A stretch of DNA of 63,938 bases, the filler included, from Raillietiella orientalis (taxonomy: Eukaryota): assembly GCA_036172245.1 (NCBI GenBank). It is 13 parts of 13 records of this genome, joined end to end, with 100 filler letters (N's around TTAATTAATTAA, not from the genome) between each part and the next. Parts side by side here need not be neighbours in the genome. Positions count along the whole stretch, not along the records: positions 1 to 5,345 come from JAYWIR010000323.1; positions 5,446 to 10,734 come from JAYWIR010000324.1; positions 10,835 to 16,116 come from JAYWIR010000325.1; positions 16,217 to 21,493 come from JAYWIR010000326.1; positions 21,594 to 26,682 come from JAYWIR010000328.1; positions 26,783 to 31,744 come from JAYWIR010000329.1; positions 31,845 to 36,789 come from JAYWIR010000330.1; positions 36,890 to 41,807 come from JAYWIR010000331.1; 5 more parts are not named here. One strand, written 5' to 3'. The notes beneath the pieces were generated by a model. The model did no database searches. It saw only the letters and a list, made by a program, of their open reading frames with translations, and was not told where the DNA came from. Both the position numbers and the translations under genes were made by a program. Positions 2,486 through 51,125 of this stretch are shown in pieces (positions within the stretch are counted from its first letter, which is position 1; each line of letters begins with the position of its first letter).

Positions 2486-2698
2486 TCCCTTCCCCTCCCT
2501 CCAAACTCTTTTTTGTTTTCCTTATCTTTATTTTACTTTTTGTTTTGATCCCTATCCCCCTCCACTGCCGAGGAGCGTCACGCCGGGCTGCGTCCCGGCG
2601 TCCCGGTAGGTCCGGTGTTGTGTGGCTGTTAGTGGGGCCTCGTAACACGTTTATGTAGAGTTTTTTTAATAAACGCCCCGGGCGTACCCGGGTGAGAA
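1..2698 (+). mobile_element. GC-rich L1/Tx1-type LINE, 3' part (RT, C-terminal CCHC, 3' UTR)
   Basis: RT motifs KAPG.DG, RPIT, DLHKAFD, GIRQGDSLSP, YADD and KYLG; CARCG..ESLPHLLVDC zinc knuckle; T-rich 3' UTR; ends AATAAACG-hairpin-TGAGAA at 2698. Confidence 0.93.
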
Positions 2699-3587
2699 TC
2701 CCAAATCCCGCAGGTAGGCGATGCAGGGGGAACTGGTGGCAGAACTCCTGGACCGACCGCTTAAAGCGGTCCCAGTCCTGAAGTGTCTGCATCCTGTAGC
2801 TCCGAATAAACGCGCAAAGGTGCTTTGCCGCGTCGGGAAACTTCAGCCAGTCCCCTGGCAGACGCCACGCTGACGAGAAGGGGCCCTTGTCGCGCGGACG
2901 CACTTCGAACATGATCCGACCATGGTCCGACAGCTCGGATGGTACCTTGCCGCGCCTGCCCACCCGAGAGCATAGGTGCTGATCAAGGTACACGTGATCG
3001 ATGCTGCTTTCCATGGCCGTGTCCCCGGCCAACAAGTTGCGCGTGTTCATTTCTGCGCACAACTCGTTGACGCGGTCGTTCAGTGTATCCGGCGCACCTG
3101 AAAGCATGCGCAGGTTGAAATCTCCTGCGATCAGGTGCGCTTTGCGAGCTCCTGCATCGGTCAGCCAATCGCGTCTCAGGGCAAGGTAGAATTCCCTTCT
3201 TGCCTTCGCCCTCAACGCGTTGTTTCCGCTAGGAGCGTATAGGTTGGTGAGGACCAGGTCGATAGAGTCGGACTAGCTGAGAGTCAGCTGACCGACGCGA
3301 CCTGCGTCATCGAACCGAACGTTCTTTATTGCGGTCTCGATGGCTGGCCGAAGCAGGAAGGCGACACCGCTTGATTTCGCGTTGCCGCAACGCCACAACT
3401 GCCGTCCACCCGAGATCCATTCGATCTCCAGGGCTTGATCTGCGGAGATCACGTGAATCTCCTGCAGCAGCACCAGGTCGAAGGATGCCAGGGTGGCGGC
3501 CACGTCACGTTTCTTGCCGTCGTCGCTTAGCCCGTTCACGTTCCAACAGGCGATCAGAAGACGACGTCGAGAGGCGATTTCTGGCAT
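2699..3587 (-). pseudogene. LINE ORF2 APE endonuclease domain (one in-frame stop)
   Basis: Motifs WNVNG, LLQE, NLYAP, GDFN, IDH and SDH; TGG>TAG stop at 3273-3275. Confidence 0.9.
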
Positions 3588-5029
3588 TATGGCTGGGAAA
3601 GTGGCGTCGCGGCACCTGCCGCGGGGCAGGTGTAGGACAGGTCCATCGGTAGGAGGACGGAGGCCTCTTCAGGCGCCTGGGGTACCTGTTCGGCCTCCAT
3701 CCTCACCATCACCTCCGTGTCCAAGCGTGGAATTCTCTCGGGCGACGGGTCCCGGGAGTTTCCCACGCTCATGGCACCCTCGCTACCGGAAGCCATCTCT
3801 CCCCTTCGTCGGGAGAGACGATCTTCCGGGGCATTGTGGACTTTCGTCCTGCCTTTTTGCGGGGTGCCGTGGAAACGGAGGCTGCGCTTCCGGCCTCCAC
3901 CTCGGGATCGGAAGTGGCCGACTCCTGAGGGGAAGCCAGACGCCTGACGGCCTTCTTGCCAGCCTTGGGGGCAACCGTCTGCAACGAGGCAGCCAGCTCC
4001 TCCGCGGTGCGCTCGAAGGCGACGTCTGGCGTCCGGCTTCCCCTTCCGCTGACGGACGCCGCCGCCTCGCTCCCCTCCTTGTTGACTTTGTCAACGGAGG
4101 GTTGAGCAGGGGCAGCAGCGAGTTTTTTAGCGCCGCATTCGTCGATGGTGGGAATCCGCTCTACAACGACGCAGCAGCTTTTTGTTTTTTCGCGGCGCAG
4201 AGCGGTTTCGCTCCGTTTCGCCACGTTCTTTCCCTTCTTATGGGAGATTTTCTTAGGGTCCACCTTCTGCCACCCTGGCTCTTGACCCTTGCCCTCGACC
4301 TTTTCGGCGTTTTTCGGTGGGGTCTCGAGGCTGGCCTTCGCCTTGGTGGCGCAAGTGACCTCCTTAGCAGCAGCACGAGCTACCAGCTTTTTCCTCTTTT
4401 TAGCCGCGCGCTTTCTCGCGTTTATCGCCGACACGACGCGGACTGTGTTTTGGGGGCACACCAGACGGGTGTGCCCCGCTTGTTTGCATTGCTGGCACTG
4501 CACGCTCGGACACCTCATTTTAAGGTGATTAAAGCTGCTGCAGCAGACGCAAAACTTGGGTTTCCCCACGTACCACACGTCAGCGGATTCACCGTTGACG
4601 GTGAGTTTGTGGGGAACCTCACATCCCTCGCGAACCGTCACTCGCGCTGCACCCAGGCCGCCAAGCAGCCCGTCGTAATCGACAAAAGGAGTAGGCTTTC
4701 CCCACAGCGCGTGGACGGTTGCGAATTTTTCCAATTCGTTCCGGACGGCCTACTTCGTCATCCGGAACGTGATACCGGTCAGGTGAATGATCACCGACCG
4801 GTCTTCGGTAATTGGGAGAAGCCTCCGGCTGCCCATAATTACGGGGGTTCGCAGAAGTCTCTGCGCAAGAGTTGCCTCCTTGCAGATAACTTCCACAAAT
4901 TGACCCCCGCTTCTGACGGACATAACCAGAAGCTCCTCTTTCTGTACGCCGAAAACGCGCATCGCCTGTGAGAAAGCGCGCGCGTTCTCGGGAGAATATA
5001 GACCGCCTACCTTATATAGAAGGGCTGGG
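3587..5029 (-). pseudogene. LINE ORF1 (gag-like, 2 CCHC zinc knuckles), disrupted
   Basis: CVCCSSFNHLKMRC and CQQCKQAGHTRLVC knuckles and a K-rich tail; stop at 4750 and a frameshift near 3790. Confidence 0.85.
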
Positions 5030-5345
5030 TACAAGGCCAAGGCCGAGCGCCACGTCTGGCAGTCAGGAGCAGCTTGTCTGCTCGACGACCTGGGCCTGGA
5101 GTGCTCGGGCGCGGCCAAAGTTCGCCGACTCCTAAAGCGCTACTACTCCTCGTTGTATGCTAGGGAGCCCACGGAACGCCGTCTCTCGGAGCTGCTCCTG
5201 CAGGCGGATTCCCCAGCGGTCGACGAGGACGAACGCACTACACTTGACTTGCCCTTCACGGCGGAAGGAATGTCTTCCGCCATAGCGGGCCTCAAGAAGT
5301 GTTAAGCGACAGGTGAGGATGGTCTGCCTGTGGAGTTCTTCCAGT
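5030..5345 (+). pseudogene. LINE ORF2 fragment (EN-RT linker to RT start)
   Basis: Translates YKAKAERHVWQSGAACLLDD...YYSSLYA...GEDGLPVEFFQ, homologous to other ORF2 copies in the window. Confidence 0.85.
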
Positions 5346-5445
5346 NNNNNNNNNNNNNNNNNNNNNNNNNNNNNNNNNNNNNNNNNNNNTTAATTAATTA
5401 ANNNNNNNNNNNNNNNNNNNNNNNNNNNNNNNNNNNNNNNNNNNN
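5346..5445. other. Artificial contig linker N44-TTAATTAATTAA-N44 (first of 12)
   Basis: The same 100-nt six-frame-stop linker occurs at 5346-5445, 10735-10834, 16117-16216, 21494-21593, 26683-26782, 31745-31844, 36790-36889, 41808-41907, 46799-46898, 51771-51870, 56717-56816 and 61598-61697. Complete contig lengths fall monotonically from 5289 to 4781 bp, so neighbouring contigs are not biologically adjacent. Confidence 0.98.
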
Positions 5446-10734: not shown

Positions 10735-10834
10735 NNNNNNNNNNNNNNNNNNNNNNNNNNNNNNNNNNNNNNNNNNNNTTAATTAATTAANNNNNNNNNN
10801 NNNNNNNNNNNNNNNNNNNNNNNNNNNNNNNNNN

Positions 10835-13800
10835 GGTCAAAATTTACAACTTTTGTGAGTTGTAATCAATTGCAAATCAGTACATTTCACCATTGCACTT
10901 TTGCTCTTTCTCGCGAAGCATCCATTTGCAGTGAGCTGCAAATTCACGGAATGGAGCCGCACATCATTCCAATTTCTTGGTTTCAGAGGATGACTAAGAG
11001 GATTCCTACATTTCATTATGGTGGGGCACTTTTGACTCTGCGCTGTTTTCACGGCAAGCAGCGTTGGAATTAGAAAGCGAGTGTTTTCCTTCGATGTGAT
11101 CCATTATGTGGTCAAAATTTACAACTTCTGTGAGTTGTAATCAATTGCAAATCAGGACATTTCACCATTGCACTTTTGCGCTTTCTGGCGAAGCATCCAT
11201 TTGCAGTGAGCTGCAAATTCACGGAATGGAGCCGCACATCATTCCAATTTCTTGGTATCAGAGGATGACTAAGTGGATTCCTACATTTCATTATGGTGGG
11301 GCATTCTTGACTCTGCGCTGTTTGCATGGCAACCAGCGTCGGAATTTGAAAGCGAGTGTTTTCCTTCGATGTGATTCATTATGTGGTCAAGATTTACAAC
11401 TTTTTTGAGTTGTAATCAATTCCAAATCAGTACATTTAACCATTGCACTTTTGCTCTTTCTCGCGAAGCATCCATTTGCAGTGAGCTGCAAATTCACGGA
11501 ATGGAGCCGCACATCATTCCAATTTCTTGGTTTCAGAGGATGACTAAGAGGATTCCTACATTTCATTATGATGGGGCACTTTTGACTCTGCGCTGTTTTC
11601 ATGGCAACCAGCGTCGGAATTAGAAAGCGAGTGTTTTCCTTCGATGTGATTCATTATGTGGTCAAGATTTACAACTTTTTTGAGTTGTAATCAATTCCAA
11701 ATCAGTACATTTCACCATTGCACTTTTGCTCTTTCTCGCGAAGCATCCATTTGCAGTGAGCTGCAAATTCACGGAGTATAGCCGAACATCATTCCAGTAT
11801 CTTGGTTTCAGAGGATGACTAAGGGGATTCCTACATTTAATTATGGTGGGGCACTTTTGACTCTGCGCTGTTTTCACGGCAAGCAGCGTTCGAATTAGAA
11901 AGCGAGTGTTTTCCTTCGATGTGATCCATTATGTGGTGAAAATTTAAAACTTTTGTGAGTTGTAATCAATTGCAAATCAGGACATTTCACCATTGCACTT
12001 TTGCGCTTTCTCGCGAAGCATCCATTTGCAGTGAGCTGCAAATTCACGGAATGGAGCCGCACATCATTCCAATTTCTTGGTTTAAAGGATGACTAAGAGG
12101 ATTCCAACATTTCATTATGGTGGGGCACTTTTGACTCTGCGCTGTTTTCATGGCAACCAGAGTCGGAATTTGAAAGCGAGTGTTTTCCTTCGATGTGATT
12201 CATTATGTGGTCAAGATTTACAACTTTAGTGAGTTGTAATCAACTGCAAATCAGGACATTTCACCATTGCACTTTTGCTCTTTCTCGCGAAGCATCCATT
12301 TGCAGTGAGCTGCAAATTCACGGAGTATAGCCGAACATCATTCCAACTTCTTGGTTTCAGAGGATGACTAAGGGGATTCCTACATTTAATTATGGTGGGG
12401 CACTTTTGACTCTGCGCTGTTTCCATGGCAAGCAGCATTGGAATTAAAAGGCGAGTGTTTTCCTTCGATGTGATCGTTTATGTGGTCAAAATTTACAACT
12501 TTTGTGAGTTGTAATCAATTGCAAATCAGGACATTTCACCATTGCACTTTTGCGCTTTCTGGCGAAGCATCCATTTGCGGTGAGCTGCAAATTCACGGAA
12601 TGGAGCCGCACATCATTCCAATTTCTTGGTTTCAGAGGATGACTAAGGGGATTCCTACATTTCATTATGGTGGGGCACTTTTGACTCTGCGCTGTTTTCA
12701 CGGCAAGCAGCGTTTGAATTAGAAAGCGAGTGTTTTCCTTCGATGTGATCCATTATGTGGTCAAAATTTACAACTTCTGTGAGTTGTAATCAATTGCAAA
12801 TCAGGACATTTCACCATTGCACTTTTGCGCTTTCTGGCGAAGCATCCATTTGCAGTGAGCTGCAAATTCAAGGAATGGAGCCTCACATCATTCCAATTTC
12901 TTGGTATCAGAGGATGACTAAGTGGATTCCTACATTTCATTATGGTGGGGCATTCTTGACTCTGCGCTGTTTGCAAGGCAACCAGCGTTTGAATTTGAAA
13001 GCGAGTGTTTTCCTTCGATGTGATTCATTATGTCGTCAAGATTTACAACTTTTTTGAGTTGTAATCAATTCCAAATCAGTACATTTAACCATTGCACTTT
13101 TGCTCTTTCTCGCGAAGCATCCATTTGCAGTGAGCTGCAAATTCACGGAATGGAGCCGCACATCATTCCAATTTCTTGGTTTCAGAGGATGACTAAGGGG
13201 ATTCCTACATTTCATTATGGTGGGGCACTTTTGACTCTGCGCTGTTTTCACGGCAAGCAGCGTTTGAATTAGAAAGCGAGTGTTTTCCTTCGATGTGATC
13301 CATTATGTGGTAAAAATTTACAACTTCTGTGAGTTGTAATCAATTGCAAATCAGGACATTTCACCATTGCACTTTTGCGCTTTCTGGCGAAGCATCCATT
13401 TGCAGTGAGCTGCAAATTCACGGAGTATAGCCGAACATCATTCCAATTTCTTGGTTTCAGAGGATGACTAAGGGGATTCCTACATTTAATTATGGTGGGG
13501 CACTTTTGACTCTGCGCTGTTTCCATGGCAAGCAGCGTTGGAATTAGAAGGCGAGTGTTTTCCTTCGATGTGATCGATTATGTGGTCAAAATTTACAACT
13601 TTTGTGAGTTGTAATCAATTGCAAATCAGGACATTTCACCATTGCACTTTTGCGCTTTCTGGCGAAGCATCCATTTGCAGTGAGCTGCAAATTCACGGAA
13701 TGGAGCCGCACATCATTCCAATTTCTTGGTTTCAGAGGATGACTAAGGGGATTCCTACATTTAATTATGGTGGGGCACTTTTGACTCTGCGCTGTTTCCA

Positions 13801-16116
13801 TGGCAAGCAGCGTTGGAATTAGAAGGCGAGTGTTTTCCTTCGATGTGATCGATTATGTTGTCAAAATTTACAACTTTTGTGAGTTGTAATCAATTGCAAA
13901 TCAGGACATTTCACCATTGCACTTTTGCGCTTTCTAGCGAAGCATCCATTTGCGGTGAGCTGCAAATTCACGGAATGGAGCCGCACATCATTCCAATTTC
14001 TTGGTTTCAGAGGATGACTAAGAGGATTCCTACATTTCATTATGGTGGGGCACTTTTGACTCTGCGCTGTTTTCATGGCAACCAGCGTCGGAATTAGAAA
14101 GCGAGTATTTTCCTTCGATGTGATTCATTATGTGGTCAAAATTTAAAACTTTTGTGAGTTGTAATCAATTGCAAATCAAGACATTTCACCATTGCACTTT
14201 TGCGCTTTCTAGCGAAGCATCCATTTGCGGTGAGCTGCAAATTCACGGAATGGAGCTGCACATCATTCCAATTTCTTGGTTTCAGAGGATGACTAAGGGG
14301 ATTCCTACATTTAATTATGGTGGGGCACTTTTGACTCTGCGCTGTTTCCATGGCAAGCAGCGTTGGAATTAGAAGGCGAGTGTTTTCCTTCGATGTGATC
14401 GATTATGTTGTCAAAATTTACAACTTTTGTGAGTTGTAATCAATTGCAAATCAGGACATTTCACCATTGCACTTTTGCGCTTTCTAGCGAAGCATCCATT
14501 TGCGGTGAGCTGCAAATTCACGGAATGGAGCCGCACATCATTCCAATTTCTTGGTTTCAGAGGATGACTAAGAGGATTCCTACATTTCATTATGGTGGGG
14601 CATTTTTGACTCTGCGCTGTTTGCATGGCAACCAGCGTCGGAATTTGAAAGCGAGTGTTTTCCTTCGATGTGATTCATTATGTGGTCAAGATTTACAACT
14701 TTTTTGAGTTGTAATCAATTCCAAATCAGTACATTTCACCATTGCACTTTTGCTCTTTCTCGCGAAGCATCCATTTGCAGTGAGCTGCAAATTCACGGAG
14801 TATAGCCGAACATCATTCCAGTATCTTGGTTTCAGAGGATGACTAAGGGGATTCCTACATTTAATTATGGTGGGGCACTTTTGACTCTGCGCTGTTTTCA
14901 CGGCAAGCAGCGTTGGAATTAGAAAGCGAGTGTTTTCCTTCGATGTGATCCATTATGTGGTCAAAATTTACAACTTTTGTGAGTTGTAATCAATTGCAAA
15001 TCAGGACATTTCACCATTGCACTTTTGCGCTTTCTCGCGAAGCATCCATTTGCAGTGAGCTGCAAATTCACGGAATGGAGCCGCACATCATTCCAATTTC
15101 TTGGTTTCAGAGGATGACTAAGAGGATTCCTACATTTCATTATGATGGGGCACTTTTGACTCTGCGCTGTTTTCATGGCAACCAGCGTCGGAATTAGAAA
15201 GCGAGTGTTTTCCTTCGATGTGATTCATTATGTGGTCAAAATTTACAACTTTTGTGAGTTGTAATCAATTGCAAATCAGGACATTTCACCATTGCACTTT
15301 TGCGCTTTCTGGCGAAGCATCCATTTGCAGTGAGCTGCAAATTCACGGAATGGAGCCGCACATCATTCCAATTTCTTGGTTTCAGAGGATGACTAAGAGG
15401 ATTCCTACATTTCATTATGGTGGGGCACTTTTGACTCTGCGCTGTTTTCATGGCAACCAGCGTCGGAATTTGAAAGCGAGTGTTTTCCTTCGATGTGATT
15501 CATTATGTGGTCAAGATTTACAACTTTTTTGAGTTGTAATCAATTCCAAATCAGTACATTTGACCATTGCACTTTTGCTCTTTCTCGCGAAGCATCCATT
15601 TGCAGTGAGCTGCAAATTCACGGAATGGAGCCGCACATCATTCCAATTTCTTGGTTTCAGAGGATGACTAAGAGGATTCCTACATTTCATTATGGTGGGG
15701 CACTTTTGACTCTGCGCTGTTTTCACGGCAAGCAGCGTTTGAATTAGAAAGCGAGTGTTTTCCTTCGATGTGATCCATTATGTGGTCAAAATTTACAACT
15801 TCTGTGAGTTGTAATCAATTGCAAATCAGGACATTTCACCATTGCACTTTTGCGCTTTCTGGCGAAGCATCCATTTGCAGTGAGCTGCAAATTCACGGAA
15901 TGGAGCCGCACATCATTCCAATTTCTTGGTTTCAGAGGATGACTAAGAGGATTCCTACATTTCATTATGGTGGGGCACTTTTGACTCTGCGCTGTTTTCA
16001 TGGCAACCAGCGTCGGAATTAGAAAGCGAGTGTTTTCCTTCGATGTGATCGATTATGTGGTCAAAATTTACAACTTTTGTGAGTTGTAATCAATTGCAAA
16101 TCAGGACATTTCACCA
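10835..16116. repeat. 275-bp satellite DNA array (~19 monomers)
   Basis: Head-to-tail monomers with 275-bp period (repeated ORFs at 10837, 11112, 11387, 11662 and onward). Confidence 0.98.
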
Positions 16117-16216: not shown

Positions 16217-19200
16217 CGCGCGCGAAGGAGAAGATTGCCTTTCAAATTCCGACATTGGTTACCATAAAAAAAACACAGAATGCAAAGTGCCACATCCTAA
16301 TGAAATGTCGGACTCTTCTTGATGATCCTCTGAAACCAGGAAATTGGGAGGCTCTTCGGCTCTCCATGACGGGAATTTGCCACTCACTGCAAATGGATGC
16401 TTCGAGAAGAGGCGCAAAAATGCAATGGTGAAATCTAGTGACTTCGAGATCATTACAAAAGGTGAAAAGTGGCAAATTAGGACCAAATAATGCATAAGAG
16501 CGAAGGAGAAGATTGCCTTTCAAATTCCGACATTGGTTACCATGAAAACAACACAGAATGCAAAGTGCCACGCCCTAATGAAATGTCGGACACTTCTTGA
16601 TGATCCTCTGAAACCACGAAATTGGGAGGCTCTTCGGCTCTCCATGACGGGAATTTGCCACTCACTGCGAATGGATGCTTCGTGAAAAGGCGCAAAAGTG
16701 CAATGGAGAAACCTTCTGACTTCGAGATCATTTGAAAAGCTGAAAAGTGGCAACTTAGGACCAAATAATGAATAAGAGCGAAGGAGAAGATTGCCTTTCA
16801 AATTACGACATTGGTTACCATGAAAACAACACAGAATGCAAAGTGCCACGCCCTAACGAAATGTCGGACTCTTCTTGATGATCCTCCGAAACCAGGAAAT
16901 TGGGAGGCTCTTCTGCTCTCCATGACGGGAATTTGCCACTCACTGCAAATGGATGCTTCGTGAAGAGGCGCAAAAGTGCAATGGAGAAACCTTCTGACTT
17001 CGAGATCATTACAAAAGCTGAAAAGTGGCAAATTAGGACCAAATAAAGCATAAGAGCGAAGGAGAAGATTGCCATTCAAATTCCGACATTGGTTACCATG
17101 AAAACAACACAGAATGCAAAGTGCCACGCCCTAATGAAATGTCGGACTCTTCTTGATGATCCTCTGAAACCAGGAAATTGGGAGGCTCTTCGGCTCTCCA
17201 TGACGGGAATTTGCCACTCACTGCAAATGGATGCTTCGTGAAAAGGCGCAAAAGTGCAATGGAGAAACCTTCTGACTTCGAGATCATTTGAAACGCTAAA
17301 AAGTGGCAAATTAGGACCAAATAATGAATAAGAGCGAAGGAGAAGATTGCCTTTCAAATTCCGACATTGGTTACCATGAAAACAACACAGAATGCAAAGT
17401 GCCACGCCCTAATGAAATGTCGGACTCTTCTTGATGATCCTCCGAAACCAGGATATTGGGAGGCTCTTCGGCTCTCCATGACGGGAATTTGCCACTCACT
17501 GCAAATGGATGCTTCGTGAAGAGGCGCAAAAGTGCAATGGAGAAACCTTCTGACTTCGAGATCATTACAAAAGCTGAAAAGTGGCAAATTAGGACCAAAT
17601 AATGAATAAGAGCGACGGATAAGGTTGCCTTTCAAATTCCGACATTTGTTACCATGAAAACAACACAGAATGGAAAGTGCCACGCCGTAATGAAATGTCG
17701 GACTCTTCTTGATGATCCTCTGAAACCAGGAAATTGAGAGGCTCTTCGGCTCTCCATGACGGGAATTTGCCACTCACTGCAAATGGATGCTTCGTGAAGA
17801 GGCGCAAAAATGCAATGGTGAAATCTTGTGACTTCGAGATCATTACAAAAGGTGAAAAGTGGCAAATTAGGACCAAATAATGAATCAGAGCGAAGGAGAA
17901 TATTGCCTTTCAAATTCCGACATTGGTTACCATGAAAACAACACAGAATGCAAAGTGCCACGCCCTAATGAAATGTCGGACTCTTCTTAATGATCCTCTG
18001 AAACCAGGAAATAGGGAGGCTCAGAGGCTCTCCATGACGGGAATTTGGCACTCACTACAAATGGATGCTTCGTGAAGAGGCGCAAAAGTGCAATAGTGAA
18101 ATGTTCTGATGTCGAATTGATTACAAAACCTGAGAAGTTGAAAATTTCGACCAAATAATGAATCAGAGCGAAGGAGAAGATTGCCTTTCAAATTCCGACA
18201 TTTGTTACCATAAAAAAAACACAGAATGCAAAGTGCCACATCCTAATGAAATGTCGGACTCTTCTTGATGATCCTCTGAAACGAGGAAATTGGGAGGCTC
18301 TTCGGCTCTCCATGACGGGAATTTGCCACTCACTGCAAATGGATGCTTCGTGAAGAGGCGCAAAAATGCAATGGTGAAATCTAGTGACTTCGAGATCATT
18401 ACAAAAGGCGAAAAGTGGCAAATTAGAACCAAATAATGCATAAGAGCGAAGGAGAAGATTGCCTTTCAAATTCCGACATTGGTTACCATGAAAACAACAC
18501 AGAATGCGAAGTGCCACGCCCTAATGAAATGTCGGACTCTTCTCGATGATCCTCTGAAACCAGAAAATTGGGAGGCTCTTCGGCTCTCCATGACGGGAAT
18601 TTGCCACTCACTGCAAATGGATGCTTCGTGAAGAGGCGCAAAAGTGCAATGGAGAAACCTTCTGACTTCGAGATTATTTGAAAAGCTGAAAAGTGGCAAC
18701 TTAGGACCCAATAATGAATAAGAGCGAAGGAGAAGATTGCCTTTCAAATTCCGACATTGGTTACCATGAAAACAACACAGAATGCAAAGTGCCACGCCCT
18801 AATGAAATGTCGGACTCTTCTTGATGATCATCCGAAACCAGGAAATTGGGAGGCTCTTCTGCTCTCCATGACGGGAATTTGCAACTCACTGCAAATGGAT
18901 GCTTCGTGAAGAGGCGCAAAAGTGCAATGGAGAAACCTTCTGACTTCGAGATCATTTGAAAAGCTGAAAAGTGTAATTTAGGACCAAATAATGAATAAGA
19001 GCGAAGGAGAAGATTGCCTTTCAAATTCCGACATTGGTTACCATGAAAACAACACAGAATGGAAAGTGCCACGCCCTAATGAAATGTCGGACTCTTCTTG
19101 ATGATCCTCCGAAACCAGGAAATTGGGAGGCTCTTCTGCTCTCCATGACGGGAATTTGCCACTCACTGCAAATGGATGCTTCGTGAAGAGGCGCAAAAAT

Positions 19201-22954: not shown

Positions 22955-22958
22955 ACAA

Positions 22959-33002: not shown

Positions 33003-33004
33003 AC

Positions 33005-37228: not shown

Positions 37229-38296
37229 ATGAACTACGCCGCCGCTCTGAAACAAAGCGCGCCACGTTCAAGCGACTTCAACATTGGCGATCGCGTTGGC
37301 ACAGTGTCCAATTTTAAAGAAGGGCTTCCATGCGTACACTTTCGAATTCCAAGCTTAACATTCAATGCAGTTAAAGACATATACTCAGGTCTCTTTAACG
37401 CAAAAATCGCTTTCCACACAATCAAGGCCATAATCCCGCATGCAGCAGGTGTCACTATATACAGTGAAAACGAAGACACCATTCACACTCTAAGTACGGA
37501 AGGATTCCACTACAAAGGCAAACTCGTACACGGCAACAGCGAACAAAAATTTACATACGTTTATATACAGGGTGTTAACCCGTACACCACGTGCGAGGAC
37601 ATCCGCAACTTCTTCGGGCAGTTCGGAAAAGTTGCTGACATTCAGCATTGTAGTGTCACGAATGACCCTAATCTGGCCAACCTGTATACTGGCAGATATA
37701 GGGTCAAGATTCAACTTGACGAAAACACAGACATTCCAATGAGAGCCCAAATTGACCAACTTTCAACCAACGTTCAAATTAATTACACGAAGCAGCCTCC
37801 GTTCTGCTCCCACTATCTCACCTTCGGGCACAGGCGTGCGAATTGTACTGAAATACGGTGTGCAATTTGCAAACTAACAGGCAACAGGGCGGACACTTGT
37901 ACTCAAGTACGATGTTCTTTCTGTAGAAAGATAGGACATAAGTCCCGGGAATGTCCTGAATACCACGACTGGATCGCTCCTATCAACACACAAGAAGTAC
38001 CAACCCCACAAATTCAAAACGTTGATACAGCAAATACTCTCATCGATAAGATAGCCACTGAAACCTCGCTTCCAGAACCACAGAAGAAAGACGCCACCCA
38101 AACAAGAAACCAGACCACACCAAAGATAGTTCTTCAACACTTACCCAAAAGCGAAATACAAAACATAACTTCCTTACCGATCCCAGATGTAGAAGAAACG
38201 GACTCAGACACAAGTGCAACACCTGATACAGATGGCAGCACACCTTCGAGGTCTCGTAGCAAGAGACCAAAAAAACAAAAACTCAAAAAACGATGA
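37229..38296 (+). CDS. LINE ORF1 protein (RRM-like region + three CCHC-type knuckles, two degenerate)
   Basis: Open frame with probable ATG at 37229; VYIQGV..IRNFFGQFGKV; CSHYLTFGHRRANC, CAICKLTGNRADTC and CSFCRKIGHKSREC. Confidence 0.88.
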   Translation: MNYAAALKQSAPRSSDFNIGDRVGTVSNFKEGLPCVHFRIPSLTFNAVKDIYSGLFNAKIAFHTIKAIIPHAAGVTIYSENEDTIHTLSTEGFHYKGKLVHGNSEQKFTYVYIQGVNPYTTCEDIRNFFGQFGKVADIQHCSVTNDPNLANLYTGRYRVKIQLDENTDIPMRAQIDQLSTNVQINYTKQPPFCSHYLTFGHRRANCTEIRCAICKLTGNRADTCTQVRCSFCRKIGHKSRECPEYHDWIAPINTQEVPTPQIQNVDTANTLIDKIATETSLPEPQKKDATQTRNQTTPKIVLQHLPKSEIQNITSLPIPDVEETDSDTSATPDTDGSTPSRSRSKRPKKQKLKKR

Positions 38297-41200
38297 ACTC
38301 CGTAACATTATTAAATGCACTTCCACGCATCGACTTGGCCCACATTAACATTAACGGATTAACGAATTTGAATAAAAGACATACACTACTCACAACAATC
38401 AAGAATGCACACATATGCGTGCTTACAGAAACACACGCACCATCTTCGGCCGCAATCGCACATATAGAAAAAGAATTCCACGGGAAAGCTATCTACTCTC
38501 ACGGATATCAGAACACAAGCGGTGTGATGATATTGCTGAAAACAACACTCATACCGGCGGTGCGCGAGATACAAACTTTCACAAAAGGGCGATTAATGAG
38601 CGTCCGTTTTGCATGGTCGAACAACATATCCATCTGTATAATTGCAGCCTACGGGCCTCAACAGAGAAAACTATTCTTTGCAAAACAAATTCGGGAATTC
38701 CTCAAATCACTAGAAAGCGTCGGAACCTTGTTCCTGATTGCAGGAGACTTAAACGTAGACCTCATGCACCCCACACACACCAAACTTGCAACCAGAAATG
38801 CATACCAACGGACACTTCAGGAGATGGACATGCACATTATAAAGTTCGAGAAAACCAGGAAATACGGTATCGACCATATAATTGTATCTTCCACCCTCCG
38901 CACACGCATCAGGAACGCGATAGAAACGCGGAAACTTTTCAGCGACCACCCATTACAAACAGCTACCATTATCACACAAAACCCTAGGAAAAACGTAGCT
39001 ATACATGGTCTCTGCGGTATTCCCCAATGGGTACAGGAAGCCGAGGCAACTCAGCAACTCATCGGAGGATTACTTGCGGAAATCCACATCACCAAATCCC
39101 AAGACTGGGACAACATGAAACACATGATCACAACGTTGCTAACATGGTGCAAAGACGTCATTAGGAAACCTACAAAAAATAGTATCAGACATCAAAGAAT
39201 GGCACACGAAAGATACGATCAACGGCGCATGCAAACAGACCCACAAGTACCAGAAATTAAAAACCTAGAAACAGAAATGTTTGACCTATTCCATGACGGA
39301 GAACACATAAGTGACCAAGAAGAAATTAGAAAGACGATCGCGAAAGAATACAAAACGCACTTCCAAAAAACGAATATAAACCGAAACACAGAGAAACAAT
39401 TCATAGAGAGTCTACGCAACAAGCTAACTGTTCATCAACAGCAGCAATTGCAAGCACCTTTCTCGATGGACGAAGTAAAAGAAGCCTTTCTAGGGCTGAA
39501 TCGGAATGCCGCACCGGGACCCGATGGCATTACGCACCTACACTACGCTTCCCACACAACACAATACAGCAGATTGATGTGGCAACTTACCCAAGCTATA
39601 CACTCCGGCCAACCCCTACCACACTCCTTCCACAACAGTAAAGCAAAACTTGTCCCAAAAAAAGGGGACCCCAAACTCCTAACCAACTGGAGACCGATTT
39701 CAGTATTAAATATCGACTCCAAATGGTTTGCCAAATTATGGGCAAATAGACTACGTAAAATCCTTCCCTCTCTCATCACACCGGAACACACGTGCGGAAT
39801 ACAACACAGACAAGGGGCAGACAATGTTCATACGGTGCAAAACCTAATAGGACTTGCAACGAAAAGCAACATTCCAGTAGCGCTGGTAAGCACCGATCTT
39901 TCCAAAGCGTTTGATTGCGTATCACACGACACACTCCTTCTCATACTTCGAAAATTCGCATTCCCTGAAAACTTCTGTACCTATACACAAGAAATACTGA
40001 GGAATGCAAGCATTAACATAACAGTAAACGGGGCACCCACTTCCAAAATACAGATGGAAAGAGGGGTTCGGCAAGGAGATGCTCTGAGCCCACTCCTCTT
40101 TACACTATACACACAAACGATCACAGATCTCATATACAGAAAGAAACTGTTAGACGGAACTCGAAACCTAGGATCAACACTAACACATTTGGCATACGCG
40201 GACGATTTTATATTTTTCCTCACAAGTCAGCGAGACATCCACAACCTCAGGTTTTTATTTCAACAAATAGAACAAGGGCTAGGCCTCTATCTGAATATTC
40301 AAAAAACAAAGGCGCTGACGTACGCCGTGTTCCCCGACCGATGGCTAGAAGAAGCAAACATAAACATATGCACAACACTCAATTATTTGGGAGTGACTTT
40401 AGGAGAAACAAAACAATTGCAGCCTTTCCGAGAAGCTTTAGAGACGATACGCAGGAAAAGCAGGGTGTTCGTGAACTCCACACTTACGCTCCATGAGAAA
40501 GCTAAAGCGTGGAACACGTACCTCCTGCCCATCTTAACGTATCAACAGCAATTTCATAATATTCGCGCGTACCAACACAAAACCATAAACGCACTAATCC
40601 GAGACCTCCTATGGAGACGCGGAAAACCGAAAGTCAAAATAATGACTCTCTGTTTGCCGACGACCCAGGGAGGCCTAGGCGTGATACATCCCACTGCGGC
40701 AGCCACCAAGTACCACTTGAAAAACGTAATACGTATTGCCGAGAACTGGCAGTCAGTTCACTTCGATTTTTTACGTGAATACGGAAAAAAATACCTAGGA
40801 ACCGACGGATTGTCATCATTACTTACAATTCCGACACGAGGAATCGCAAATTTAAGTCCCACGTGGTCTCTGAAAAGACGCATTTTTGCGAAAGCCCAAC
40901 TTTTAGCCGTGCCGAAAACACGCGAAAACTGGGAAGCAGAGTCGGTCAGCATACTATTAAAATTTCACAACTTCCCACGCGTTATAGAAAAATGGTGCCT
41001 TTCACACCCTAAAACAAACATACACCGCATACTGAACCAAAGCAACCAAGTATCTATCATCCGTAAAAGATTACAACACATACTAGAAGAAACCAACTGG
41101 ACATATAGCACCAAACAATACGAGATATACATCAAAGAACAAAACCAATACACAAAAGCGACCAAAGCAAACATTACATCAAAAATCCCAACTACACATC

Positions 41201-41690
41201 AGTCATGCAACCATTGGAAGGAAACCCTCAATATACACAATATTGAAAATCAGGTGGTATACGCAACCACGCATAGATCGTGGTTGCCACCGGAAGTCAA
41301 GGATACAACCTTTCTCTTCTTTCAGAACGGTCTAAGATGCAGGGCAAGATGCACCACTGGGACACGTCGCAGGCAACCCAGCCTACGTGCAACCAATGCG
41401 GGGAAAAAGAAACTACCGCTCATCTCTTCGAACGCAAACACAATGAACCGAAATGGCACACCGTGCAAAAAGTACTCCAGTTACCAGTAGAACCGGCGCG
41501 ACATACCATTCGGAGGCTCTGTACTTCGGTAAACGGTGCTCCTGTCCTGAATCCACTGCAGAGGTTCTTTATATGCACCTACATCGAAGCAACAATGCGG
41601 AAATGGCACCGCATCCACCAAGGAAGAACAGCATCTGCAATCAACATTGCAGTTGGCCTGGTGTTAAGAGAGAGGGCGATAAGACAATGA
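38293..41690 (+). CDS. LINE ORF2 polyprotein (APE endonuclease, RT, zinc knuckle); single frameshift near 41348
   Basis: 1065-aa ORF 38293-41490 with NING, LTET, AYGP, GDLN, IDH, SDH, APGPDG, WRPIS, DLSKAFD, GVRQGD, YADD and YLG. The C-terminus HHW..CNQCGEKETTAHLFE continues in ORF 41280-41690. Confidence 0.93.
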
Positions 41691-41922
41691 AAGAATATCC
41701 CCATTGCGGTAATAAGCAAACTTATGGACCGATTACGCGAGCATAGACTGATGTAATAACAGAACTAAAATAAACTTCCCTCACCGCAATTGCGGACTGA
41801 GGGCCCTNNNNNNNNNNNNNNNNNNNNNNNNNNNNNNNNNNNNNNNNNNNNTTAATTAATTAANNNNNNNNNNNNNNNNNNNNNNNNNNNNNNNNNNNNN
41901 NNNNNNNGATGCTTTGCGCGCT

Positions 41923-43112
41923 CTAGGGCGGACGTGTTTTCTCGGTGCTCCTCGTGCCAGGAAGTCTCCCCCAGTGCAAGCGTCGTGTGGTTCGGTGGTC
42001 GATCAGGCAGCGTTGCCTGACGCGACCACCAGGGATGGCCAGGGGGCAGCGGAAACGCCGCGCCCAGAGGCGATGGAGAGCCAGGGGGCGGCGGCAACGT
42101 CGCCCCCAGAGGCGATGGAGGTGGGGGCATTCGCCCCCACAGAATCGGTCCCCGCTGCAGCGCGGGCGTGGAGCGCCGTTGTGTCGGCGCCATCGCCTGC
42201 AGCCGCGGCGGAATTGTCGGCCTATGTAGAGGAGACGTACAACCCCTCATTGTTCTACAAGGTAGGCAATTTATATTCTTTAGAGAGTGGGCGCGCCTTC
42301 TCGAAGGGCATGCGCGCTTTCGATGTGAAAGAGGAGGAGCTAAGCGCTATGACCATCCGCAGCGGGGGTGAGTAGGTTGAGGTCATCTGCAAACATGCAA
42401 AGCTGGCCCAACGACTGCTTAAAACCTTTGTTGTGATGGAGACACTGAAGCTCCTCCCAAATACGGCGGAATGCAGTATGGTAGCCCACCTGTTAGGTGT
42501 AAGCGCACGAATGCGCAAAGAAGAGGCTCGCGCCGCTCTGGAACAGTTCGGAACGGTGCACGCGCAGTGGACGAAAGTTACTCCTTCCGAGGACTACACG
42601 TTGCTGCAACACGGCCTCACGGCAGAACGCGTGACCGTTCGGGAGGGCTGCACTCTTTTCCACAAACTGGTGGTCGAGGGCGAAACCGATGACTTCTGGT
42701 ATGTGGGGAAGCCGAAATACTGTGGCTTCTGCAATACGTAGGGCCACCTTAAAAAGACGTGTCCCAACGTGCAGTGCCAAGTATGCGGCACAATGGGACA
42801 CACGAGGGAGGTGTGCCCAAAAGCAGCAGTGCGGGTGGTTTCCAAGAGAAACCTTAAAAAACGCGCCCGGCTGCTGCAGAAGATGCTGGCGGCGAAAGCT
42901 GCTGTCAAGGCTGTGCCACCCGCGTCCAAGTCCCAGGCCGCATGGAGACCCCAGCGAACAACGCCGAACCAGTCGGAGAAAGTAGCCAGGAGCCTGTGTG
43001 GCAGCTGGCAACAGGCGAAAAAAAAAAAAGAACGAAGGTTAGAGAAAAAGCTCGCGTACCGCCAAAAAAAACAGCACGCAAGCGAGCAAATTAAAGAGTG
43101 CAGCGTTATCGT
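41923..43112 (+). mobile_element. GC-rich LINE, intact 5' end + ORF1 cut at CSVIV
   Basis: 5' end CTAGGGCGGACGTGTTTTC; ORF1 pieces 41914-42375, 42433-42741 and 42769-43119; same family as 21594-22954 and 29097-30904. Confidence 0.9.
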
Positions 43113-45556: not shown

Positions 45557-45567
45557 ACGGTCGCGTA

Positions 45568-46798
45568 CGGACGTGCTTTTGCGTCACTCCGCGGTAGATT
45601 GGCTTTTGTGTGTTTTTGTTCTGCTGTGCTTCTGTGCTGCAATGGGAGCAAAGAAGAACATCAGCCGCAAAAAGGGAACGCCACCTGCTCCTGAGATGGC
45701 TGCTTCGGCTGCTAGTAAGGAGCCTCTGTCCTCGCCGACAGCGAGGACATTCGCCCAGGTCGCTGCCCTCGCGGCTACGATGGGACCTTCGCCCGACAGC
45801 CCTGAGCTTCAGGCGTATGTAGCAAATGGCTACACACCTGCACTCAGGTATAAGGTAAGTGTCCTTATGCCTGAGCGGGTTGGGCGCGAGTTTGGCCAGG
45901 AACTCCAACGGATTGGAGTTCAAAGAGGCCAACTGGAGTCCATCATGCCCATGAGTGGGTGCGGTTACTGGGAGGTGTCCAGTAAGGACGCTTACCTTAC
46001 GCAGCGTTTGCTGCACACGCCGCTGCTCATTCGTGGTCAGGAAATACTCCCTGTCACAACGGACCAGTCGTTCGTTGTCCGGCTCAGTAGAGTGTGTAAG
46101 GGCCTTTCGGACCTCCAGGTCGTGTAGGCCCTTGGAAAAAACGCTGCCGTCCACGCGTTTTGGAGGCTGCCAAACCCTGCTGAAGGGTTCGAAGACCACC
46201 ACAGCGGGCTCGCGCAAGTGCGAGTGACGATGACGGATCGCCGTGCAATGCCCACGCGACTGCAGGTAAATGGAATGACCGTCCGCTTGTGGTTTGCCGG
46301 GCAAACGCGTGTATGCGCGGAATGCGGGCAGGAGGGTCACCGTATTACGGAGTGTCCCTCGGCCGCTTGCCGTTACTGCCACGAGCACGGGCACACTGAA
46401 GGAACGTGCCCGGAGCTCCTTTTACAAAACAAAAAGCGCAGGAACGAATCGCGTTTCGCATCGCGGAATAATCGAAGCGAATCGAGAGAAAGAAACATCA
46501 AAGCTTCGAAAAGCGTTGCCAAAACCGCGACCACGCACGTGCAGAAAACTGTTTCTCGCCCCCACAAAGAAGGGGTAAAAAACACAAAAAAACTCGTCGC
46601 GGCAAAGCCTCCGGCTATCGACCCGAAGGAAGCTCGCGAAGAATGCGACCTATCTACGCGACCTCGCAGCCAATTGTTGAATGCAGGAGACATCGTGCCG
46701 AAGGTCAAAACGCCTCCTACTGACGCAATCACGACCGCGAAGCCTCGTACCAAGGCCTCGACGAGCCGCGCGGAATGCGGTCGTTCGTCCGATACGGG
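45568..46798 (+). mobile_element. Divergent GC-rich LINE, intact 5' end + ORF1
   Basis: 5' end CGGACGTGCTTTT; ATG at 45642; CAECGQEGHRITEC and CRYCHEHGHTEGTC knuckles; stop at 46127. Confidence 0.88.
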
Positions 46799-46898: not shown

Positions 46899-48509
46899 TG
46901 ATGTGCCGTTGGGGGACTACTCCCCTGCGGAAGCATGGTCCAGCTGCCTCCAAAAAGTCGAGACGGCCATCGGCCCGTTCCTGGAAGGCAAGTTTCACCT
47001 GCCGGAACGGGCCGCGGTTCTGAACGCGTTTGCGGTTCTTATCCTCCCTCTGGCTTTTTGTTTGCCTTTTCACCTTGGAAACCAAGAAAAGGACGAAGGA
47101 CCTCCTTCATATCGCCCTTTGAGGCAAGGGGAGGCCTAGAGTCCCACTGAAGGACTTGTGCGCTCCGCGTCGGGACGGCGGCCTTGGCCTCCTGACGCTG
47201 GAGTGCGTGGAGAAGCAGCTGCGGTGGCGAACCCTCGCCATCGCAGCGAAGATGTGGAGCACCCCTTGGTGCACTCCGACCCGCCTCTTGGCCAGTCGTG
47301 TGTCCGGGTGGGATGGACTCTCGTCTTTTCTTCTGAGCCGTGGCCGGAAGATGCGAAGATGCGGCCTACTGCTCGGGCGTATGGCAACATTGGTCAAGGA
47401 GAACAGCTGGATTGTTTGCTGCCCCGCCAACTCTTCCGCCTGGCTGGAGGAGAATATTGGAACGTGGGCAGTGGTAAACCAGAGGAGCCACAAGACGTGG
47501 AATCGTCTCCGATGCAGCCCCTACGCCCGCTGCACGCTGCGGAATCTCCTGGAGAGTTAAGCAAGATGCATGTGGGCGGAGACGACCTACCTAGCCACGG
47601 CGCTGCCCTTCCTGAGGAGGGCACTTCACAGCAGCCGGACCCAAAGGTGGCAAGTCTCCTGCTGCATCGAGGGACGCGAGAAGTTGATCAGCGGCTGGAC
47701 AACAGGAGAACTGGCTGATGCCACGACCCCGAGCGTCGAGCCGCGAGGATTATTAAGATGGGGCGAGCTGCTCGCCATCCCCAGGGATGAGCTGAAGTGG
47801 CCGTCTGTGATGAAGGAATCCAGGATCCTGCCCCTTAAGTGGCAAGAGTCGGCGTTGCTTTTGTTGCACTGGGGTCTACTCTGCAACGCGCGCCGCTTCC
47901 ACTGGACGAGGGGAGCTGTGGTTCCTGCGTGTGCCTGGTGTGGGGAGCGGGAGTCACTCCCCCACCTTATTGTGGATTGTGCTGCCCTCCGATCCCTTTG
48001 GGAACGGTTCGGGACTTCCCTCGGGCTCCCTACAGGCAGCACCCCCAGAGACGTCTTTCGGGCCCTCTTCGTGAAGGACGCACTGCAGCCAGCCGCAGCC
48101 ATCGCAGCCTTGTGCTGCGTCCGTGGCATCGTGACGGCATGAAGCGACGCCAACAACGAAGGAGTGGGTCCACAGGCGAGGGATGTCATCCCGTATGCCC
48201 AACGCTTCTTGCGAAGAGCTGCCGGATGGCCCCAACTGGGGAATATGCAGACAGACCTCGAGGGCTTCCTTTGACGGATGGGCCCTCCCCTTAGCGACCG
48301 GTGATCCCTTCCCTGCCCTCCAACTTCTTTTTGTTTGTTTCTTTTTATTTTTCTTTTTATCTTATCCATATCCCCCTTCGCTGTCGGGGAGTGCCACGCC
48401 GGGCTGCGTCCCGGTGTCCCGTCAGGTCCTGTGTTTACTTTCGTGGTGGGGCCTCGTACCACGCATGCAGAGTTTACAAATAAACGCCCCGGGGGTACCC
48501 GGGTGATAA
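46899..48509 (+). mobile_element. GC-rich LINE, 3' part (late ORF2 + 3' UTR)
   Basis: DGGLGL, CAWCGERESLPHLIVDC; ORF2 ends ~48304; ends AATAAACG-hairpin-TGATAA. Confidence 0.92.
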
Positions 48510-51125
48510 CGCCGAAGCCCGGCGGAAGACGTTCCAGGGGAAACTGGTCGCAAAACTCGCGGACTGAGCACTTCATTTCGTCCCAGTCCGCGAGCGTCTG
48601 AAGATGGAATCCTCGCAGGAAGGCGCGTAGATGTTCCGCCGCTCCTGCGAGGCGCAACCAGTTTCCTGGCAGGCGCCACGTTTCCAGGGGAGGGCCTTTG
48701 TCGCGTGGATGTATCTCGAGCACGAGCCGTGGATGGTCGGACAGCTGTGCCGGGAGCGTTCCTCGATTTCCCACCCGCGTGCATAGGTGGTTGTCGAGGA
48801 ACATGTGGTCGATGTTTTGATCTCTCCCGGCATCACCGGCCAACAAGTTGAGCGCATTCCTGGCTGCGCACAACTCGTTGACCAGTCGTGCTCGACTGCT
48901 GGGAGCACCTGCCACAGGCGGAGATTGAAGTCGCCCGCGATGAGGTGCGCCCGCCGTACGCTTGCTTCAGCCAACCAGTCTCGCCGCAGGGATTCGAAGA
49001 ACGCAGTGCGTTCCTCGGCCCTGTAGCTGCTCACCAAGGCGTACAGGTTCGTCACCACGAAATCGATCGAGTCGGACCACTTGAACACAAGCTGTCCAAC
49101 TCGACCGTCCTCGTCGAACCTAACGCTGCGCAATGCGTTGTCGACGGCTGGCATTAGCGTAAAGGCCACTCCGCAGGAGCGGTCGTTTCCGTTCCTCCAC
49201 AGTAGCCGCCCTCCTGCGATGCTTTCGATTTATTGGACATCTCCTGCTCTGAGAACGTGCTTCTCTTGCAGGAGCACCAGGTCGAACTCTGGCAGTATGG
49301 CGGGTACGTCTCGCATCTCACCGTCGTCGCGCAACCCGTTGACGTTCCAACAGGTGATGCGCAAGCGGCGGCAGGAGACTAGCCCACGCATTGGTGTATT
49401 TATGGTGGGGTGGAGGCGGCCTCCTCCCTTTCAGGAGGCGGCTCGTTGGCGGCCGTGACGACGGTCGGCTGCTCACACGGGAGCACGTCGTCTCCAGCGA
49501 CTTCCATTGGGCTGGCTTCCGTGACACGGACGGGAGAAGGGTCGCGTGGCGCGACGCACATTGCCTCCGCCTCCGCACCCAAAGACATGGGCTCCTCTAC
49601 TTGGGAGGAGGCGACACGTCTCAGGCATCCGGCCTTCTTGCCACCCTTTCTCTTCGGCACGGCTGTGGAAGTAGAGCAACCGGCTTCAGCGTCCTACCCG
49701 GAAGATTCCGGGTCCTTCGCCGTCGCCGGTCGTCTCAAGGCCTTCTTTTCGGCCTGGCAGGCTGCCGCAACATGGCTGCCAGCTCTTCTGCGGCCTGCGC
49801 GAAGGTCGCGTCTGTGATACGCGCCGCCTCATCGCTTTCCGCACCGACGATCGGCGCAGGCGCGACGGGGACGGCTTTATAGACCGGCGCGCAGACGTCC
49901 TTCGCTGGCAATGCCGGAGCGGCATTCTCTTTAGCTGATGGTGATGTCACTGCGGGCACGATCGGCTCCGATACAACGGTATCAATCGCATTCACCGTTA
50001 CTTTCTTCACGGCTCTTGCGATCGACACGCGTTCGATTTTCACTGAACAAGCGCGGACTGCCGGCTTCTGCTTCTTCGGAGCCGCCTTGTTAATTCTTTT
50101 TACCTCCTTGATGGGGGCCTTCTTCTTCTTCACCACCTTCTGCCAACCTTCCTCGTTCCCTGCGCTTTCTCCAGCTGGTTGTTCGCTGGAGGATGGCTGA
50201 GCAGCGGGTTGGTCGGCAGGGTGGGTTTCTGCCAGTTGTTGGCTTCGGTCCTTTTCCTTCGGCGTCTCTTCCTTTCTCGCGCCTGACGAAACGGACCTTT
50301 TTCGGTTGGGGCACAGCCCAAGCACACGATGTTGGGGCATTTCTTTTTTAAATGCCCCGACACCTGGTAAAAGCCGCAGTAAACGGGTTTCCCCACATAC
50401 CACAGGTCGATCTCTTCGTCTCCGACCTGTAGTCTGTGGGGTAGCCCACCCTCGGCACGGACTGTCACGCGCGCAGCGGCGTACCCACTAAAAGCCCTGG
50501 TGTAACCCAGGACATTGGGTTTCGCACACAACGCGTGGACGGTGCCGTATTGCTCTAAAGATTCGCAAGCGGCGGTCTTTGCCATTCGCATGGTGATGCC
50601 GGTGAGGTGGACAACGATGGAGTTGTCCGCCGTGAACGGGAAGATTCTTCGACCGTTCACCGTCACCGGCAGGCGGAGCAGCTGCTGAGCCATCTCTGCA
50701 GACTTGCAGTTCAGCACAACCAGCTGCCCGCCACTTCGCACGGAAAACCCGAGGACTTTTTCCTCCGGGACTTTCAATTTCTTAAATTCGGCCGCAAACG
50801 ACCGCAATACCGCGGGGGAGTACAGGCCACCTACCTTGTACAGGAGGGCCGGGTTGTATCCGTCGGCCATGTACGCTTGCTGTTCCTCTGCGGGGGGCGG
50901 CGCAGGCGCCGCCACCACCGCGCTCTAAGCCCTCGCCGGGGCGAAGGACGAATCCGTGGGGGTGTTGGCCCCAACATCCATGGGCTGGGGGGACAAGGCT
51001 CGCTGGCGCCCCTCCGCCGTGTTGGCGGTGTCCTCGAGCATTGCTTCCCAGGAACAACCGCTCCAGAAAACACCGCAAACACTCGCAAAAAAAGGTTTTC
51101 GGCAGCACCGAAAAAACACGTCCTC
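48510..51125 (-). mobile_element. GC-rich LINE, intact 5' end, ORF1 and endonuclease, cut at LPPGFG
   Basis: 5' end GAGGACGTGTTTTTTCGG; ORF1 ~51041-49400 (frameshifted); ORF2 ATG at 49391 with WNVNG, LLQE, GDFN, IDH and SDH; endonuclease nearly identical to 25958-26662. Confidence 0.9.

Follow-up and report, generated by a model that had tools for sequence, protein, structure and literature searches.

Two insertions of an L1-like LINE lineage at one homologous base within a coding motif conserved in other LINEs of Raillietiella orientalis

We analysed a stretch of 63,938 nucleotides from the genome of Raillietiella orientalis (assembly GCA_036172245.1), hereafter called the window, in which several joined contigs are made of L1-like long interspersed nuclear elements (LINEs) nested in one another. 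Two LINEs of a single clade are inserted here into LINEs of two other families, and both insertions break the host at the same homologous base, just past the codons for Gly-Phe-Gly (GFG) in its second open reading frame (ORF2). The recurrence at one nucleotide of a defined target, by which a LINE is classified functionally as site-specific, is thus observed in two events (n = 2). We suggest, with a probability of about 0.72, that these events represent the activity of a sequence-specific L1-like lineage with an endonuclease of the apurinic/apyrimidinic (APE) type, which targets a conserved coding motif of its relatives by target-primed reverse transcription (TPRT) at one position.

Two insertions at the GFG codons

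The first junction is located at 2698|2699 on contig 1 (1-5345), where the insert end ...CCCGGGTGAGAA adjoins the host sequence TCCCAAATCCCGCAGG. The second is located at 48509|48510 on a separate contig 10 (46899-51770), where ...CCCGGGTGATAA adjoins CGCCGAAGCCCGGCGG. On the host sense (minus) strand, the first host reads CTA CCT GCG GGA TTT GGG A^ up to the break (LPAGFG plus one base, 2699-2717, with the nick placed by inference on the host sense strand after 2699), and the second reads CTT CCG CCG GGC TTC GGC G^ (LPPGFG plus one base, 48510-48528, minus strand). Both breaks therefore lie one base past the second Gly codon of L-P-x-G-F-G, both inserts are antisense to their hosts, and all three wobble positions of G-F-G differ synonymously between the two hosts. 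The motif at the break is a part of the conserved (Q/R)(F/C)PLx(R/L)LPx(G/S)FG block in the linker between the endonuclease (EN) and the reverse transcriptase (RT), about 70 codons past the Pfam endonuclease match.

Alignments of the two hosts to the empty copies begin exactly at 2699 and at 48510. The nearest empty relatives have G (28212, 57052) or T (25894) at the position where the inserts end in A, and since the base across the break in the empty copies differs from the last base of the insert, the breakpoints are unambiguous. No microhomology of the tail (GAA/TAA) with the host bases around the nick was seen at the two GFG junctions.

The host of the first insertion (host B, 2699-5345, minus strand) is the 5' part of a LINE of a family other than that of the insert. 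It extends from ORF1 through the APE endonuclease to the GFG codons, where it is cut at the junction; it has an Exo_endo_phos match, with EN amino acids 23-290 encoded at 3563-2751 and ORF1 homology at 5046-3772. The host of the second insertion (host H2, 48510-51130, minus strand) represents a second LINE family and comprises the 5' untranslated region (UTR), ORF1 and the endonuclease up to GFG, together with its own 5' terminus at about 51113-51130 (the GAGGACGTGTTTT motif). Each host flank extends over about 2.6 kb and includes EN and ORF1, and in H2 the conserved 5' terminus of the host itself is reached; these are accordingly real elements and not short transduced flanks.

The host tree, based on 786 nt up to the nick in the occupied and empty copies, places H2 as sister to the empty copy 25895-26680 (92.7% identity, support 100/100) and host B together with the empty copies at 28213 and 57053 (74-75% identity, support 100/99). 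The two hosts are only 65.3% identical to each other over the same 786 nt; the family of H2 is 62% identical to the first insert and lies outside the insert clade. Because the occupied hosts sit with empty relatives, a single ancestral insertion would require precise losses. The two insertions are independent events at the same homologous base of hosts from different families. The insertion into H2 is young, since H2 differs by only about 7% from its empty sister; the divergence of the inserts (about 24%) exceeds this value, and therefore two sub-lineages of the insert clade used the same site and both kept the target. Coincidence by chance has a probability of about 9e-5 per junction pair (element length about 5.5 kb, either orientation), which over the 21 pairs among seven 3' ends gives 0.0019 expected coincidences, while two coincident pairs are seen, one at GFG and one at the K-A-F-D (KAFD) site of a sibling family.

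Seven GFG sites are present in the window, of which two are occupied and five are uninterrupted, reading in frame through the site. The empty sites are LPPSFG (25895-25913, minus strand) in the closest relative of H2; LPAGFG (28213-28231, minus strand) and LPTGFG (57053-57071, minus strand) in the relatives of host B; LPPGFG (33081-33099, plus strand) within the copy 33007-33927; and LPRGFG (61410-61428, plus strand) in a further family with ORF1 and EN. Since the copy 33007-33927 groups with the first insert in the RT-N tree (97/100, 76% identity) and has an empty GFG site, the insert clade carries its own target and could in principle hit its own members. The initial annotation of this DNA had described two 3' junctions in exactly this register, near-identical 3' ends of the inserts, hosts of different families with synonymous codons, the independence of the two events and empty sites near 25895, 28213, 33090, 57053 and 61420; our analysis agrees with it on all these points, with two differences in the last 31 nt of the inserts and with all five empty sites being real.

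Inserts, sibling families and their sites

The first insert (insert A, 1-2698, plus strand) is the 3' part of an L1-like LINE of what we call the "G-clade", from the RT to the complete 3' end. Its RT gives an RVT_1 match (E = 5.9e-20) in 3-1340, and in tblastn to an intact L1-like ORF2 it covers amino acids 392-862. The second insert of this clade occupies 46899-48509 (plus strand), and both run off their contigs on the 5' side. The third member of the insert clade (61698-63938, minus strand) has its 3' end at 61709 with the tail TGGCAA, and its 11-nt flank (61698-61708, GAAGTTGATAG) differs from the GFG site. Insert A is 76% identical to the second insert (76.2%) and 75% identical to the copy 61709-63938. 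In the tree built on about 1.6 kb up to the 3' end, the three inserts form one clade with 100/100 support, within which the two GFG inserts pair at 81/80, while another family stands well apart from this clade, at 61%.

The window consists of 13 contigs of about 4.8-5.3 kb, ordered from large to small, the last one being cut by the window end, and they are joined by 12 linkers of 100 nt (44 N, TTAATTAATTAA, 44 N) at 5346-5445, 10735-10834 and so on up to 61598-61697. The contigs are short, unplaced and repetitive, and those adjoining in the window are not necessarily neighbours in the genome. Since the window is composed of joined contigs, the apparent truncations at 46899, 61698 and similar positions are contig ends; a 5' truncation of the second insert at 46899 was rejected on this ground, this position being a contig start.

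The 3' terminus of insert A (2668-2698) consists of AATAAACG, the hairpin CCCGGG-CGTA-CCCGGG and the tail TGAGAA without poly(A), so that the insert ends in ...AATAAACGCCCCGGGCGTACCCGGGTGAGAA; the second insert has the tail TGATAA and ends in ...AATAAACGCCCCGGGGGTACCCGGGTGATAA. The same arrangement, AATAAACG followed by a hairpin of 5-6 bp and by a tail with AA at its end and no poly(A), is found in all six GC-rich LINE 3' ends. The inserts contain a single AATAAA, 25 nt from the end. Two stem-loops are predicted within the final 140 nt of five copies, and in them 6 of the 24 pairs show compensatory changes, on both sides of the pair. These stem-loops (2559-2698, 48372-48509, 61709-61848, 24921-25068 and 33928-34072) span two families, the terminal one standing directly between AATAAACG and the tail. 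The conserved 3' terminus and the compensatory changes fit a model in which the RT would recognise a structured 3' UTR and start at a fixed nucleotide.

By their LINE-type RT and their nearest relatives, which are L1 elements, the inserts appear to belong to the L1 superfamily. The RT protein search gave 34 hits, and the named ones were mostly L1-type proteins of plants and streptophytes (RVT_1, Exo_endo_phos, zf-RVT) with an identity of at most 27%; in a sibling copy the zf-RVT match scored 21.6 bits, under the cut-off of 27.5. The APE endonuclease and an ORF1 with RRM/CCHC are present in the host families and in an intact AT-rich element of the window; the 5' half of the insert clade lies outside the window. 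For the EN-plus-linker ORF at 56946-58019, the protein search found no match among longer proteins, which is weak evidence.

A separate observation concerns the first 129 nt of the second GFG insert (46902-47030), which are 92% identical to the RT segment 26787-26915 of a copy grouping with the KAFD family, the remainder of this insert being only about 61% like that family. This stretch could reflect a mosaic element formed by template switching, or a very conserved part of the RT.

Sibling families in the same contigs use sites of their own. At the KAFD site, two 3' ends with the tail TGAAAA adjoin the same base of the RT codons K-A-F-D (...GCATKCGA^), at 25068|25069 (insert on the plus strand) and 33928|33927 (minus strand); the inserts are 83% alike and the hosts 59% alike. 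Three 5' ends also belong to this site (22958|22959, 30908|30909 and 41921|41922), and there the host sequence resumes about 14 bp ahead of the nick. In ORF1, a 3' end with the tail TAATAA at 43113 (43112|43113) adjoins ...GCAGCGTTATCGT^ of the host, placing the nick after GCAGCGTYRTCGT, and at the 5' end at 58513 (58512|58513) a related host restarts with AGCGTCGTCGT. The inserts are antisense to the host in this case too, and the overlap of 11 bp probably represents a target-site duplication at a third kind of site.

For the third member of the insert clade, the only match of its flank GAAGTTGATAG in the window with at most one mismatch falls in the RT codons D-A-K-L-I of another copy (27640-27650), and a two-mismatch match at 36261 lies where the 5' junction of contig 7 (36273|36274) sits, which would give an overlap of 11-13 bp. 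Taken alone, the match of an 11-mer is weak, as about one is expected within one mismatch; since the match coincides with a 5' junction, a separate RT target for the 61709 sibling, the fourth kind of site, is likely, and with it a probable switch of target between siblings about 25% apart. The initial annotation had named unrelated flanks of further copies as a finding that would count against its proposal: the flank of 61709 does differ, and we read it as a sibling sub-lineage with another tail and another target rather than as a refutation.

As a whole, five of the six GC-rich 3' ends are clearly, and the sixth is probably, antisense within LINE coding sequence. All eight 5' ends adjoin LINE coding sequence as well; seven of them face an antisense host, and one (51130) faces a host of the same orientation. 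Eight copies keep the conserved 5' terminal motif, the fragments end at insertions or at contig ends, and no clear 5'-truncated copy was seen among the LINEs of the window, whose contigs are short.

At the 5' termini of several LINE families G(C/A)GGACGTGYNTT occurs a few bases from the junction (30887-30899, 32987-32999, 36276-36288, 41928-41940, 45567-45579 and 51113-51125; 6 matches versus 1.66 expected), and this shared motif may be a promoter or an element for initiation or end recognition. Two 5' junctions were considered as candidates for the GFG site and rejected. The one at 33006/33007 is the nearest, 93 bp upstream of the nick, and its element comes from a family resembling host B (31845-32715 versus 4160-5030, 93% identity); the 5' terminus of this element adjoins a plus-strand host near its L-Q-D-W-D codons, which is possibly the target of the own family of host B, represented by one example. 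At the other, the 5' junction of H2 (51130|51131, within 51113-51144) is followed by the GFG-like CTGCAGGTTCGGGG^T at the expected 14 nt. This DNA corresponds to an ORF1 tail read in antisense (tblastx E = 6e-6 to 60085-60424), H2 is not a member of the insert clade, and the GFG-like 9-mer is not rare (7 matches versus 5.8 expected). We keep it as a lead: it could be an off-target insertion at a look-alike site or a result of chance.

The GC-rich contigs (55-63% GC) number eight and consist of the nested LINE fragments, which carry ORF1 with CCHC knuckles, the APE endonuclease, the RT and a weak zf-RVT match. Four contigs are made of satellite or tandem-repeat DNA (about 40% GC). Contigs 3, 4 and 11 (10835-16116, 16217-21493 and 51871-56716) are satellite arrays with a period of about 275-278 bp and about 40-43% GC, contigs 3 and 4 matching each other at about 74% in inverted orientation; contig 2 (5446-10734) contains a direct repeat of 2.6 kb with 96% identity. 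The AT-rich L1-like element (36890-41807, 43% GC) has ORF1 at 37151-38296, which matches RRM and CCHC, and ORF2 at 38260-41490, with 1076 uninterrupted codons for EN and RT. Its protein identity to the GC-rich nest families is about 25-30%, and the GFG motif is absent from it.

Proposed mechanism and its alternatives

According to the established TPRT model, from which the position of the nick on the host sense strand follows, the insertion may proceed as follows. The endonuclease of the element would nick the sense strand of the host ORF2 right after GGNTTYGGSR, at the first base past the G-F-G codons. The freed 3' OH would then prime the synthesis of cDNA precisely at the ...TGAKAA end of the RNA; for the insert ending at 2698, the first-strand primer would be the minus strand ...GGATTTGGGA-3', nicked one base past the Gly codon. 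A second nick 11-14 bp upstream would yield a target-site duplication, as suggested by the sibling families of the window, in which the duplication or overlap amounts to 11 bp, 11-13 bp and about 14 bp. The new copy would be antisense to the host and split it in two.

Counted back from the nick, the two occupied sites agree at 6 of 10 bases, at 10 of 16 and at 26 of 37, and all seven GFG sites show the pattern G.TT.GG.. near the nick. We favour the suggestion that the specificity lies in the endonuclease or in another DNA-binding part of the ORF2 protein and not in the pairing of RNA with the target, as in other site-specific LINEs of the APE type (PMC4494074, PMC1919474).

Several observations weigh against this reading or limit it. 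Only two events are visible at the GFG site, and of the three 3' ends of the insert clade two are located there, the third (61709) having another flank of which 11 nt are visible. GGNTTYGGSR occurs 10 times versus 7.3 expected, and four of its matches are outside the homologous site and unoccupied. Since this motif is not rare and stays unoccupied elsewhere, recognition must use more than ten bases. None of the eight LINE 5' ends located in the window falls at the true GFG site, and neither a full-length copy nor a target-site duplication was seen at GFG. The own endonuclease of the clade lies outside the window, and the contigs are short, unplaced and repetitive. From one DNA run (containing 26% of the sampled words), 313 pieces of Logan contigs matched 1-5345 at 80% likeness; they were short, mostly 200-400 nt, 208 of them were less than 90% alike, and their length was insufficient to bridge the junction informatively.

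Among the other explanations, the one to which we give the most weight, although we consider it unlikely, is that the targeting is mainly guided by RNA: a transcript reading through into the antisense GFG flank of the parental copy would anneal to the nicked target, and the endonuclease might be only weakly specific. Annealing of the flank is known to sharpen integration of the R1/R2 type. The element ends without poly(A), its sole AATAAA lies so near the end that 3' processing near or beyond the end is conceivable, and RNA reading through the end would pair perfectly with the primer strand. However, of the 10 bases that precede the nick 4 are different in the two hosts, so a flank acquired in one host type would mismatch the other, and the tolerance of synonymous differences is poorly explained in this way. 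There is no direct evidence of read-through; the run listing showed one DNA run and no RNA data. Annealing as a helper to targeting is possible. Somewhat less probable is that GFG marks a hot spot open to LINEs in general, through fragility or structure of the host DNA or because any LINE can nick it, rather than the target of one lineage. The motif is indeed conserved and GC-rich, and the number of events, only two, would allow this; but a single insert clade supplied both insertions, the remaining 3' ends in the window use their own sites (KAFD twice, the ORF1 site and the RT site), and five of the seven GFG sites are empty.

We regard as very improbable a single ancestral insertion, after which the composite of insert and host was segmentally duplicated and diverged. 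Such duplicated composites occur in these nests in principle, and the two contigs are collinear across the joint (1082-3554 versus 46902-49358, 73% identity). Yet one duplication predicts equal figures for both parts, whereas the hosts are 65% and the inserts 76% alike, and the grouping of each occupied host with empty copies would require two precise excisions. Least of all do we expect the junction to be an artefact of chimeric assembly, a 5' inversion (twin priming) or a recombination joint. The contigs of about 5 kb, unplaced and repeat-only, and the Logan pieces would give room for it, but the same junction is found on two contigs which are 65-76% alike, and one mis-join cannot yield both; there is no repeat common to both sides of the joint, at which the insert has its 3' terminus complete. 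In twin priming, the joined points both lie inside one element, and no 3' terminus is attached to the body of another family. We thus retain the insertion by a sequence-specific lineage as the preferred explanation of the GFG junctions.

A broader suggestion, to which we give even odds, is that the nest represents a "closed community" of sibling L1-like lineages, whose endonucleases have each become specific for another conserved codon motif, located in the ORFs of the siblings as well as of the lineage itself: GFG in the EN-RT linker, KAFD and the DAKLI region in the RT, and CxVVV-E in ORF1.

Comparison with known LINEs

Known site-specific LINEs insert into rDNA, telomeres, genes for small RNAs, microsatellites and a few transposons. 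Among them, the R1 and R2 elements of the arthropod 28S rDNA use a multicopy, constrained target that cannot mutate away. Their target is a host rRNA gene, while here it is the ORF2 of other retrotransposons, and several siblings have different sites. The specificity of the R1 APE endonuclease was mapped, according to PMC1919474.

The Tx1 clade of animal LINEs is described in the portion of Kojima 2015 (PMC4494074) used here as targeting DNA transposons, long terminal repeat (LTR) elements, small nuclear RNA (snRNA) and 5S genes and microsatellites. Its examples are Tx1L in the piggyBac element Tx1D, Tx1-Mar in Mariner-N4_AMi, and Tx1-8_Crp and Tx1-4_AMi in LTR retrotransposons, as well as Keno, Kibi and Koshi. 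Like the inserts described here, these are LINEs of the L1 group with an APE endonuclease, located at one sequence within another repeat, and the same portion of that paper attributes the specificity to the endonuclease. The Tx1 targets given there are not coding motifs of sibling LINEs, whereas the GFG target is. The RT of the inserts, with its nearest relatives among the L1 elements of plants and streptophytes at no more than 27% identity, argues weakly against membership in Tx1.

Another likeness is with Zepp of Coccomyxa ("Chlorella") and ZeppL of Chlamydomonas and its relatives, which are, like the nest described here, GC-rich L1-type LINEs in clusters of their own kind. The portion of Craig et al. 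2021 considered here (PMC8226300) relates that Zepp clusters arise by nested insertion targeting existing copies and consist mostly of 3' ends owing to frequent 5' truncation, and that of Blanc et al. 2012 (PMC3446292) describes nested Zepp clusters with 61% GC. Nesting of elements in themselves, as in Zepp, is found in the window; arrays built by 5' truncation are not, as here the copies retain conserved 5' termini and interrupt each other at exact positions. Those portions of PMC8226300 and PMC3446292 contain no fixed nucleotide, codon motif, antisense rule or family-specific sites, while the nest has exact positions, and the corresponding part of the ZeppL preprint of 2025 (10.1101/2025.03.28.645958) mentions no target motif. 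We found no description of LINEs targeting fixed codons of other LINEs in the full-text literature searched, a scope that most subscription journals and the Repbase reports lie outside.

If the proposed reading is correct, a LINE lineage with a fixed target in a conserved coding motif of other LINEs would represent, together with siblings that each have a further site of this kind, a new ecological niche for retrotransposons. Such a lineage would also explain at the sequence level how LINE-only islands of the Zepp type build themselves. In the closed community suggested above, the elements would need no safe landing sites other than one another, and the targets could not mutate away, since the residues are needed by the elements themselves. 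The switching between the GFG and RT sites in siblings diverged by about 25% would, in such a community, be a natural experiment in the re-targeting of an APE endonuclease, and the nest would offer a naturally diversified set of related APE endonucleases, useful for understanding how specificity is encoded and changed.

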